Below, one piece after another: positions 24,901 to 25,926 of a stretch of DNA of 25,926 nt. The stretch is from Candidatus Diapherotrites archaeon CG10_big_fil_rev_8_21_14_0_10_31_34. Lineage in GTDB: Archaea; Iainarchaeota; Iainarchaeia; Iainarchaeales; 1-14-0-10-31-34. The position numbers were made by a program. The stretch lies in the NCBI GenBank assembly GCA_002763225.1, contig PFAI01000030.1, positions 1 to 25,926 of the forward strand. Direction: 5' to 3'. Within the stretch, counting starts at the first letter, position 1. Each line of letters begins with the position of its first letter.

Positions 24901-25926
24901 AGAATACTCCGTGGAAAGAAAAAAATTGAGTTCTCTGGAAAAAGAAAAATATTTCAAGAATTTCATGATAAGGTTTACTTATGACAGCAGCAAACTGTCA
25001 GGAGTTGACATTACATTAAGGCAGACGCACTTAATTCTCAAAGACGGCATTATCCCGAAAGATTTCAAGAACTTAAAGACAGTTAAAGAAATTGAAAACC
25101 ACGAAAAAGGCATTGTGGCAATAACAAAATATACAGGAAAACTGAATATTAAGTTCATAAAAAAACTGCATAAGATTCTTTTTGCAGGAGTCAGCAACGA
25201 AATAGCCGGAAAACTGAGAAGTGAACTGAAAAGAAATGTTAAAATTGGAGGGACTCCTTTTGTTCCCCCGAAATGGAATGAACTTGAGAGAGAACTAGAA
25301 AATTTTTTTAGCTGGTATAAATCTGAAAACAGAAGAATGCATCCTTTAGAGTTAGTAGCATTAATTCACTTAAAAATGGCTTCAATTCAGCCTTTTGTTG
25401 ACGGCAACAGCAGGCTGTCAAGGCTTTTAATGAACTGGATTTTATGGAAAAAAAGCTATCCATTAATTGACATAAAAATTGAGGAGCTGGAAAAGTATTA
25501 TAATGTTTTAGATGAATTCCAGATTGAAGGAAAAGAAAAGCCATTCATAAAATACATTAAAGAAAAATACTTAGATAGTAATAGCTGAGAGAGGGATTCG
25601 AACCCTCGATCTTCCGCTTTCTGCTCCTTTTCTTTTTTTCCGAAAAAAGAAAAGGTGTAAGTTAGCCCAAAAGAAAAAAAGGAATTTGGCTAAAAACATT
25701 TTCTCTTTTTGAGCACTACTAAAACTTTTGGTTTTAGTGTGCACTTAATTTCTTTCTGAAATTAAGTTGCAACCTGCACTGGTTTTCTCTTTGGATGCTC
25801 ACGGCCTTTTTTTACCCTTTTTCTTTTGGTAGACCGTAGCTTTTCTTTTTCTGGAAAAAGAAAAGGTTGGAACTGCAGGCGGATGCATATCCTCTCTGCC
25901 ACCTCAGCTTAATTAAAGAAAGGGCT

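Follow-up and report, generated by a model that had tools for sequence, protein, structure and literature searches.

A long tRNA-Cys intron composed of dispersed repeat modules in a small DPANN archaeon

The tRNA-Cys(GCA) gene of Candidatus Diapherotrites archaeon CG10_big_fil_rev_8_21_14_0_10_31_34, the only one that we found in this 81%-complete small DPANN genome, is interrupted one base past the anticodon by a 254-nt intron that carries repeats found at several other places in the genome. Taking the whole explanation together, we think it quite probable that this is a working gene whose intron is removed by the archaeal protein-splicing machinery and has grown at the DNA level by the addition of repeat modules. 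A length of 254 nt is very long for an archaeal tRNA intron, and to our knowledge none as long is known in archaea. It is an open question by what route protein-spliced introns enter archaeal tRNA genes and how they lengthen there, and a mosaic intron is a sequence-level clue to how the long ones grow. This lineage appears to present intron growth in the act, with identifiable repeat modules making up the differences between orthologous introns, one of them flipped in another genus, and alleles differing by 96 nt that coexist in groundwater samples. The source organism is a tiny groundwater archaeon, and "the window" below denotes the whole stretch of its DNA that was analysed, 25,926 nt of contig PFAI01000030.1.

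The tRNA-Cys gene and its splice motif

ARAGORN run with introns allowed (-i0,400) located the tRNA-Cys(GCA) gene at 25583..25908 on the minus strand, and the coordinates and the 254-nt intron length given in the survey's finding proved exact. The gene measures 326 nt including the intron and is made up of a 36-nt 5' exon (25873..25908, minus strand) that ends at G37, the intron at the canonical position 37/38 (25619..25872, minus strand), and a 36-nt 3' exon (25583..25618, minus strand) that starts at A38. In silico splicing guided by the BHB motif gave a 72-nt product that ARAGORN identified as tRNA-Cys(gca) with a normal cloverleaf; G37 and the discriminator U were read off the sequence. 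A search of the 81%-complete genome with ARAGORN -i found no second tRNA-Cys gene. Default ARAGORN and Rfam at the gathering score gave no match within the window, the whole-genome run of the Rfam tRNA model missed the tRNA-Cys gene, and an Rfam E-value scan of 25400-25926 returned T-arm fragments and chance matches only. Because standard tRNA finders, here default ARAGORN and Rfam, overlook genes of this kind, tRNAs can be mistakenly recorded as absent from small archaeal genomes. Comparison of contigs revealed that a 71-nt stretch (25856..25926) is shared without a difference with contig C51, where it forms the end (17538-17608). The contigs adjoin here, and the promoter region of tRNA-Cys would therefore lie on C51.

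A BHB scan detected a strict hBHBh' motif (a nomenclature reportedly due to Marck and Grosjean, 2003) in which the central helix CUGC/GCAG pairs at all four positions and is bordered by two 3-nt bulges, AG|U and AA|A. Both flanking helices have at least 2 bp, the outer helix h, which is the anticodon stem, having 5 bp and the inner helix h' having 3 bp (UCC/GGA). The 5' half of the motif occupies 25872..25878 on the minus strand (CUGC at 25878-25875 and bulge AG|U at 25874-25872, followed by inner-helix UCC at 25871-25869), and the 3' half occupies 25618..25627 on the same strand (inner-helix GGA at 25627-25625, GCAG at 25624-25621 and bulge AA|A at 25620-25618). The cut sites fall past the second base of each 3-nt bulge, as the hBHBh' geometry prescribes. 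In the primary transcript, anticodon-loop bases 32-35 (CUGC) would pair with the GCAG near the 3' end of the intron to create the BHB, the alpha4-type EndA would cut both bulges, and RtcB would then ligate the exons. The genome has a single EndA gene (C6:1218-1736), which encodes a 172-aa alpha4-type protein with PF01974 and PF02778 that aligns colinearly and end to end with the 171-aa homotetramer enzyme of M. jannaschii (1a79), and RtcB is encoded at C60:39638-42454. The MFE fold of pre-tRNA-Cys, obtained with tools that model Watson-Crick pairs only, has an energy of -106.6 kcal/mol (z -5.8, with none of 100 shuffles equally good); it keeps the acceptor stem and the T arm, and the intron forms a long rod. 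None of the 24 sequencing runs listed proved to be an RNA run. That the tRNA-Cys intron is spliced, and at which exact sites, we infer from the sequence, and the results support the assignment of the introns in this genome to the archaeal protein-spliced (BHB) type.

Several introns in this genome and in its relatives have relaxed BHB motifs, and we count this against our preferred explanation; alpha4-type EndA is held to require strict motifs, according to an excerpt of PMC5829648. We likewise count against it the runs of T on the sense strand of the tRNA-Cys intron (T5, T5, T7 and T6). Oligo-T tracts are archaeal transcription termination signals; runs of T5 or more are present in 10 of the 15 introns, and short introns without T runs also occur in the genome. 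Euryarchaeal tRNA-Trp introns carry a C/D box sRNA (C box RUGAUGA, D box CUGA). No C/D box guide RNA was detected in the introns here, the C box being absent from all 15, and the window contained no Rfam family at the gathering score.

Repeat modules and the orthologue series

The tRNA-Cys intron is a mosaic, in which a dispersed element of about 60 nt, termed E, is present twice, as a forward copy at the 5' end and an inverted one at the 3' end, with an enlarged centre between them. Intron positions 7-64, 81-180 and 188-254 match 2, 4 and 6-8 other genome loci, respectively, in blastn searches. The forward copy of E (25809..25866, minus strand; 25814-25866 according to nhmmer; two other loci in blastn) consists of a hairpin, CCUUUUCUUUUU/AAAAAGAAAAG, a linker and a second purine tract. 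The inverted copy (25619..25683, minus strand; 25618-25683 according to nhmmer, E 2.5e-16) has the order Y1-linker-Y2-loop-R with the run-length signatures Y1 (7,4), Y2 (4,6) and R (7,4), and its end, GGAGCAGAA, is the 3' half of the BHB. The repeat of about 100 nt in the centre (25693..25792, minus strand) is the inner part of a long form of E; its dispersal, which had been claimed before, was reproduced by blastn with four other loci in this genome (C27, C42, C51 and C3). The centre as a whole is this long form with a two-hairpin insert of 56 nt and about 35 nt more. The 56-nt module (25713..25768, minus strand) was delimited by alignment of orthologues, and its two hairpins, closed by GCAC/GUGC, are both present in the MFE fold. 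TGC is found on either side of the module, in the intron as well as in free long copies; these are three bases only, too few to tell whether they are a target-site duplication.

An intron occupies the same site of tRNA-Cys in all seven family members examined, where it is 100-194 nt long compared with 254 nt here, and the introns of 102-165 nt in the five congeners agree with the gene lengths of 174-237 nt that the survey had reported for them. Over relatives the orthologous intron spans 0 to 254 nt, the tRNA-Cys gene of G019, a genome of another family, being uninterrupted at 72 nt. The exons are nearly invariant across the seven relatives, being identical in the five congeners but for one D-loop base of the 5' exon, and the central helix pairs at four of four positions in G000, G001 and G003, at three in G002, G005, G006 and G007, and at two in G004. 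The 56-nt module constitutes the difference between the orthologues of G000 and G003, the latter being without it, and is reversed in the orthologue of G006, which belongs to another genus. This comparison of orthologous sequences supports the view that the tRNA-Cys intron was enlarged by inserted modules.

The survey had concluded more broadly that introns were gained, lost and enlarged. Enlargement is borne out by tRNA-Cys, and variation in presence or absence by tRNA-Gln and tRNA-Phe, but the direction, gain as opposed to loss, is not. The same tRNA-Gln(UUG) intron is found in G004, and the exons are contiguous in G001, G002, G003 and G005, as had been described. The D-loop intron of tRNA-Phe is absent from three congeners (G002, G003 and G005), in accord with the earlier account, but is present in two others (G001 and G004) and not in one. 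The Gln and Phe introns also turn up in other genera of the family, which makes their loss inside this genus no less probable than a gain. The tRNA-Trp gene, which was said to be interrupted in all five congeners, is interrupted in four, and in the fifth it lies at a contig edge.

The long form of the intron is tiled, with no mismatch, by independent Logan contigs from three public runs, which bridge every module junction and are overlapping short contigs, not single spanning reads; X3 record 22 (25766-25902) and X4 record 29 (25686-25827) are both exact. In a co-occurring allele the 96-nt segment at 25716..25811 is replaced by nine other letters. The joint 25715->25812 that marks this 96-nt-shorter allele has a depth of 14.8 in X1, 6.0 in X2 and 3.1 in X4, and record 29 bridges the long form exactly in X4. 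Another joint, 25624->25873, which skips 248 nt and was seen in one X1 contig (depth 3.9), was considered as an intron-less allele and rejected; it probably represents a relative with another intron.

The inverted pair of E copies could close the intron up into a rod and keep the splice sites together at any length, and the interior would thus be free to take insertions. Growth of the intron would have taken place at the DNA level, by added repeat modules, a view that we favour because the modules are found in either orientation, between genes as well as next to the ends of tRNA genes, and because the 96-nt alleles coexist. Both the mobility of the modules as DNA and the way in which they move are inferred from these patterns. 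No transposase able to move the modules was found in the genome, which we count against this explanation; a search of the 81%-complete genome for Y1_Tnp (PF01797), the TnpB zinc ribbon (PF07282) and RVT_1 found none of them. Two DDE_Tnp_1 transposase genes (on C27 and C36) were considered as movers and rejected, having no DNA in common with each other or with the repeats.

Introns across the genome, element E and alternative explanations

ARAGORN -i listed 39 tRNA genes, 17 of them with introns. One of the latter, C23:21524-21842, with 21% GC, was discarded as a false positive, and tRNA-Phe with its D-loop intron, which lies outside the ARAGORN list, is real and has a strict BHB; the survey's totals of 39 and 17 thus stand after correction. 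The gene that had been called Pro-GGG (C13:3975) is Pro-UGG once spliced at the BHB, and its intron has 103 nt. The filter for strict and relaxed BHB motifs left Asp (C16) and Thr (C58) undecided, and both were taken from ARAGORN and inspection. That the introns are built of dispersed repeats was upheld for 8 of the 15 introns tested and not for the other seven, which gave no match at E<=1e-6; at that threshold, 23 of 300 length-matched random segments had non-self matches. The control was uninformative at E<=1e-3, where 115 of the 300 random segments matched, and thresholds of 1e-6 and 1e-10 were then used. About half of the introns, mostly short ones, are without a detectable dispersed repeat. 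For the long introns, the matches support the interpretation that they are mosaics of repeats that recur between genes and in the introns of other tRNAs.

Unrelated tRNAs do have modules in common, as had been asserted: Trp shares with Arg-CCU and Arg-UCU, Pro-UGG shares with Leu-UAA, and E is found in Cys, Thr and Pro-CGG. The module of the Trp intron also directly adjoins four tRNA gene ends. Thirteen distinct copies of E were detected in the genome by nhmmer, four of which reside in tRNA introns (two in Cys, one each in Thr and Pro-CGG), and E-type introns were found elsewhere in Glu-UUC of G006 and Arg-CCU of G004. These two cases rule out that E, which ends in GCAG, is limited to introns of tRNAs with GCN anticodons. 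Free copies of E lie mostly between convergent genes, and their usual end is GCAGA.

E combines a hairpin with a third tract in mirror image, as an intrastrand triple helix would be laid out; like those of triplex motifs, its three tracts lie on one strand, and the third matches the purine arm in parallel register. We parsed 45 of the 49 copies given, drawn from several families of the order, leaving out the four that did not parse. The register of Y1 against R was parallel in 36, antiparallel in none, tied in six and uninformative in three, and the unique signature triplets gave 23 parallel and no antiparallel cases, counts that overstate independence, since the copies share common descent. 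The control, which set Y2 against R, gave 22 antiparallel copies and no parallel one. The three-tract mirror rule leads to a testable hypothesis, namely that a triple helix is formed by this repeat family, which is associated with tRNA genes across DPANN archaea.

It is conceivable, if rather doubtful, that the modules are functional intrastrand triple helices of tRNA precursors, situated in leaders, trailers and introns, and that their content is selected; their role might be to steer processing intermediates or shield them, or to make the excised intron more stable, and such a role could coexist with growth by module insertion. The three tracts co-vary in the parallel Y1-R register among copies from several families, the modules adjoin tRNA ends and fill introns, and the strand order Y1-stem-loop-Y2-R is that of the MALAT1 ENE with its A-rich tract. 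However, the kinship of the copies weakens the counts, free copies are found mostly between convergent genes, and intronic E occurs in both orientations with respect to transcription, the forward copies being at 5' ends and the inverted ones at 3' ends. Because of these two orientations the pyrimidine-motif version would be present in RNA only half the time, and a DNA-level property fits better.

A tentative proposal, which we would not yet put above a possibility, is that E represents triplex-forming mobile modules, homing to tRNA transcription units, that are able to make or extend spliceable introns. An inverted E pair would supply the inner helix that unites the splice sites, and the usual terminus of E, GGCAGA, would place AG opposite the near-universal C32-U33, or, in tRNA-Cys, the full GCAG opposite CUGC. 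An intron that arose when an E pair entered an anticodon loop could thus have its BHB from birth. If true, this would show, at the level of sequence, a concrete way in which archaeal introns are born and grow. A search of the literature found no published description of repeat-filled introns in this genome or of the triplex-type element in other DPANN genomes.

Nanoarchaeum equitans has split tRNAs, and the four T5-T7 runs on the sense strand, together with the long complementarity that the inverted E copies give to the two intron ends, would suit a scheme in which the halves of tRNA-Cys are transcribed separately, through oligo-T termination and an internal promoter, and are joined in trans via the E copies. 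We judge this very improbable: the two halves lie side by side in colinear order, splicing in cis requires nothing further to be assumed, no internal promoter was seen, although no test was aimed at one, and the genome also has short introns that lack T runs. A spread of introns as RNA, by reverse splicing of excised introns into other tRNAs followed by reverse transcription and recombination, the intergenic copies being by-products, would account for the related introns of different tRNAs, including the E-type introns of G006 and G004, and it too seems very unlikely. RVT_1 was not found in the 81%-complete genome, the modules occur in both orientations and in spacers that look untranscribed, and RNA copying into the same transcript would not give the reversal of the two-hairpin module in G006. 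Least credible is that the long intron is an assembly chimera formed via repeats or that the gene is a decaying pseudogene: the gene lies at most 18 nt from the contig end, C51 ends inside it, its intron consists of repeats of the kind that break short-read assemblies, and standard tools miss it, but the contigs of three runs tile the long form without mismatch, all seven related genomes examined have an intron with related modules at the same site between conserved exons, a search of the genome gave no second tRNA-Cys gene, and the BHB motif is perfect.

Comparison with known systems

REP and BIME elements are short palindromic units that are dispersed in spacers, in both orientations, and combined into mosaics. 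The modules of the present genome resemble them in being multi-copy dispersed units that occur in both orientations and are present or absent between close relatives, and differ from them in the archaeal host, in that no Y1 transposase was found, in the location of units in tRNA introns and in the mirror-image third tract. The bacterial elements are mobilised by RAYT (Y1) transposases (cf. PMC3733652 and PMC3184786); no cognate transposase, the mark of REP, BIME and MITE elements, was found in our 81%-complete genome.

The bacterial intrastrand triplex motifs TMECO, PIT and BoxC, which extracts of Holder et al. 2015 (PMC4666352) describe as abundant and conserved, have a hairpin and a third tract that mirrors the stem. 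The words tRNA and intron do not occur in the accessible text of that paper, and, unlike the motifs as described there, the elements reported here are tied to tRNA genes of DPANN archaea. In MALAT1 and MEN-beta an ENE and an A-rich tract form a triple helix, and RNase P generates the 3' end at a tRNA-like structure (excerpts of PMC6379651 and PMC8457004); the tract order of MALAT1 is U-rich 1, stem-loop, U-rich 2 and A-rich (excerpt of PMC13541005). Going by these excerpts, E is similar in its tract order, in about 11-13 possible U.A-U/C+.G-C triples and in ends that would be set by tRNA-processing enzymes, whereas the archaeal element occurs in both orientations and its triplex is a prediction. 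The portion of the review PMC13541005 that was available names no archaeal triple-helix example.

Archaeal tRNA introns with a BHB at 37/38 are cut by EndA and joined by RtcB (extract of PMC4090602). The tRNA-Cys intron shares with these the position, the 3-nt bulges, the 4-bp helix, the predicted cuts past the second bulge base and the presence of the enzymes, and departs from them in its 254 nt and in a body of repeats that are also found outside tRNA genes. The alpha4-type EndA of DPANN archaea has been linked to more tRNA gene disruption, and its L3 loop to broad specificity (parts of PMC5829648). As far as those parts go, the present genome is alike in its single EndA of about 170 aa, its many interrupted tRNA genes and one non-canonical position, and its EndA can be aligned over the whole length with the 171-aa enzyme of M. 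jannaschii. For Asgard tRNA introns, a 2026 census (bioRxiv 10.64898/2026.10.13.758758) found, in the sections available, no general route by intron copying, mobile elements or reverse transcription and left the route of arrival open. The same preprint cites the transposing tRNA introns of Thermoproteales (Sugahara 2008; Fujishima 2010), which, as it portrays them, are like those of our genome in that related introns lie in different tRNA types and at non-canonical sites (here the D-loop of tRNA-Phe). In contrast to that portrayal, the units here are sub-intron modules of about 25-115 nt that are also present in spacers and at tRNA ends, in both orientations, and the introns appear to grow by module addition instead of moving whole.

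The tRNA-Cys gene and its intron alleles

When introns of up to 400 nt were allowed, ARAGORN placed a tRNA-Cys(GCA) gene, intron included, on the minus strand of the window at 25908..25583. Across the window, neither default ARAGORN nor Rfam at the gathering score detected any RNA gene, and the Rfam tRNA model, which found 29 tRNAs in a genome-wide run, missed this one. We also scanned for the bulge-helix-bulge (BHB) splice motif, taken as a 4-bp helix flanked by two 3-nt bulges and cut after the second bulge base; exactly one site combined the strict motif with a spliced product named tRNA-Cys by ARAGORN. 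On the minus strand, the predicted splice sites leave two 36-nt exons, the 5′ one (25908-25873) ending in G37 and the 3′ one (25618-25583) in the discriminator U, around an intron of 254 nt (25872-25619). The survey's finding of a tRNA-Cys with a 254-nt intron at 25583-25908 is thus borne out by both ARAGORN with introns and the strict motif. In the predicted motif the anticodon stem forms the 5-bp outer helix, bases 32-35 (CUGC) pair with GCAG, the inner helix is UCC/GGA, and the bulges AGU and AAA are cut after AG and AA. The precursor fold (-106.6 kcal/mol, z = -5.8) was equaled by 0 of 100 shuffles, and is predicted to keep the acceptor stem and T arm, with the intron as a long rod. A 305-aa ORF (window 24671-25588, plus strand) is convergent with the gene and shares 6 nt with the 3′ end of the tRNA; the C-terminal portion of this ORF resembles a Fic-domain motif (QPFVDGNSRLSR).

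Between the gene and the contig end lie 18 nt. Because the terminal 71 nt of contig C51 are identical to window 25926-25856, C51 and the contig of the window abut inside the tRNA-Cys gene, and the region upstream is located on C51. Logan contigs of four public groundwater runs (X1-X4) were compared with window 25200-25926. Mismatch-free pieces (e.g. X1 records 2, 3, 4 and 7; X3 record 22, 25766-25902; X4 record 29, 25686-25827) cover the entire gene and span every module junction. In a second allele, 96 nt (25716-25811) are swapped for 9 other letters; since this replacement occurs in X1, X2 and X4 (depth 14.8, 6.0 and 3.1, respectively), alleles of differing intron length coexist.

Both tRNA-Cys exons, separated by a variable gap, are present in 31 related genomes, and the gene was extracted from eight of these. 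The intron measures 165, 145, 134, 103 and 102 nt in the congeners G003, G004, G001, G005 and G002, and 194 and 100 nt in G006 and G007, which represent two further genera of the family; in G019, from a different family, the gene has no intron. A single D-loop base is all that differs between the exons within the genus. In the central BHB helix, pairing is complete in the genome under study, G001 and G003; G002, G005, G006 and G007 each show one mismatch, and G004 shows two.

Element E and its mirror tracts

BLAST against the genome itself resolved three repeat blocks in the tRNA-Cys intron, at intron positions 7-64, 81-180 and 188-254, which match 2, 4 and 6-8 other loci, respectively. From flanks and a profile search, blocks 1 and 3 are the same ~60-nt dispersed hairpin element, E, the 5′ copy forward and the 3′ copy inverted. 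Block 2 corresponds to the interior of a long-form E whose linker holds a 56-nt insert, two hairpins closed by GCAC/GUGC; four free long copies (contigs C27, C42, C51 and C3) uphold the view of the middle segment as a dispersed ~100-nt repeat. The insert falls within the 96-nt allele difference; the G003 intron has the same frame without it, and that of G006 carries it in reverse orientation. The usual E terminus, GGGCAGA, supplies the 3′ strand of the predicted splice helix in tRNA-Cys.

The profile search located four of the 13 distinct E copies of the genome inside tRNA introns, two in tRNA-Cys and one each in Thr-UGU (C58) and Pro-CGG (C45); free copies lie in short spacers, mainly between convergent genes. 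E-type introns also interrupt tRNA-Glu(UUC) of G006 and tRNA-Arg(CCU) of G004, so E is not bound to one anticodon. At C27:1-360, at least five different hairpin modules stand in tandem as a dense, BIME-like mosaic; a DDE transposase gene (C27:787-1872) lies about 430 nt away.

In inverted orientation E reads Y1, linker, Y2, loop, R, where Y1 and Y2 are pyrimidine tracts and R a purine tract; the hairpin is made by pairing of Y2 with R. Y1 mirrors Y2 instead of repeating it, and shares its run-length pattern with R in the same direction. Run lengths of Y1/Y2/R are (7,4)/(4,6)/(7,4) in the tRNA-Cys intron, and (4,3,3)/(3,3,5)/(4,3,3), (3,5,4)/(4,5,3)/(3,5,4) and (5,1,3)/(3,1,6)/(5,1,3) in other copies. 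Of 49 copies surveyed (this genome, 9; relatives in several families, 40), 45 could be parsed: Y1 was parallel to R in 36 and antiparallel in none (6 ties, 3 uninformative), and the control, Y2 against R, was antiparallel in 22 and parallel in none. The copies are kin, and the parallel rule is kept by 23 distinct signature triplets. The geometry is that of an intrastrand pyrimidine-motif triple helix, which might form in DNA or RNA; a DNA-level property fits somewhat better because introns hold E in both orientations.

Interrupted tRNA genes in the genome and its relatives

ARAGORN with introns and the BHB scan returned the survey's total of 39 tRNA genes, 17 interrupted, after one removal and one addition. 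The call dropped was the 'tRNA-Ala(tgc)' at C23:21524-21842 (intron of 230 nt), a false positive (21% GC, poor cloverleaf); the gene added was tRNA-Phe, missed by ARAGORN, which has the 44-nt D-loop intron that had been claimed, with a strict motif in the BHB scan. Splicing at the motif gave introns of 121 nt in Pro-CGG (C45), 131 nt in Arg-UCU (C47), 49 nt in Gln-UUG (C31) and 27 nt in Gln-CUG (C64), and turned the gene at C13:3973, formerly called Pro-GGG, into Pro-UGG with a 103-nt intron. Strict BHB splicing of the C13:9881-9977 tRNA (21-nt intron) yields Pro(GGG) with C, not U, at position 33; its body is similar to both other tRNA-Pro genes, and the anticodon call is uncertain.

The proposal that the introns are built of dispersed repeats held in part. 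At E<=1e-6, 8 of 15 introns matched 2-28 other loci and 7 matched nothing, the latter 21-119 nt long and short for the most part; in the control, 23 of 300 length-matched random segments had matches (mean 0.17 loci). The module of the Trp intron directly adjoins the ends of tRNA-Ile (C44), tRNA-Ala (C32), tRNA-Pro (C13) and tRNA-Val (C53). Another dispersed module is a 27-nt stretch within the Gln-UUG intron (C31:24637-24685) that includes GGTTCCGATACC: it recurs with 96% identity at several G006 and G007 loci and at C13:35667-35696, and is also seen in the G007 tRNA-Cys intron. Sense-strand T5-T8 runs, which resemble archaeal termination signals, number 18 in 10 of 15 introns, with a T8 run in both the Gln-UUG and the Phe D-loop intron.

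Among congeners, only G004 shares the Gln-UUG intron, as reported. The Phe D-loop intron is indeed absent from G002, G003 and G005, but present in two congeners (G001 and G004) rather than one, and the tRNA-Trp intron, attributed to all five, was seen in four. The Gln and Phe introns occur in further genera of this family too, so the genus is as likely to have lost as to have gained them. tRNA-Phe of G004 (locus L036, G004:C144:312-3384) has two inserts in the anticodon arm besides the D-loop intron; that of G006 (L037, G006:C2:230821-233850) has two anticodon-arm inserts without the D-loop insert.

Enzymes and comparison with known introns

The splicing endonuclease EndA is encoded by a single gene (C6:1218-1736, 172 aa, both Pfam domains) and aligns over its full length with the homotetrameric M. 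jannaschii enzyme. The gene, on the minus strand (L021, C6:1218-2897), lies back to back, across a 70-nt gap, with a 363-aa ORF, by eye presumably tryptophanyl-tRNA synthetase. RtcB is encoded at C60:39638-42454 (minus strand) in one 984-aa open frame; its Pfam model is split (positions 1-50 and 49-426, ~1.5 kb apart), and the long stretch inserted there may be an intein. Neither Y1 transposase, TnpB zinc-ribbon nor reverse transcriptase was found in this 81%-complete genome, and two DDE transposase genes (C27, C36) showed no link to the repeats; no ends common to the C27 and C36 loci were seen.

The observation of repeat-built tRNA introns is confirmed with small corrections, and its earlier interpretation is supported; the bolder reading is that the repeats themselves may create spliceable introns. 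Our search of literature outside subscription journals found no paper on tRNA introns made of dispersed repeats or on triplex-type repeats in archaea. Intrastrand triplex repeats have been described in bacteria, in a source whose available text contains neither "tRNA" nor "intron" (PMC4666352). The available text of PMC5829648 describes BHB introns, multiple and non-canonical introns, and an association of α4-type EndAs with disrupted tRNA genes in DPANN. α4-type EndA is thought to require strict motifs (PMC5829648), yet several motifs in this genome are relaxed despite an enzyme of this type. In Thermoproteales, according to the available part of a preprint, intron families are common to different tRNA types (bioRxiv 10.64898/2026.10.13.758758).
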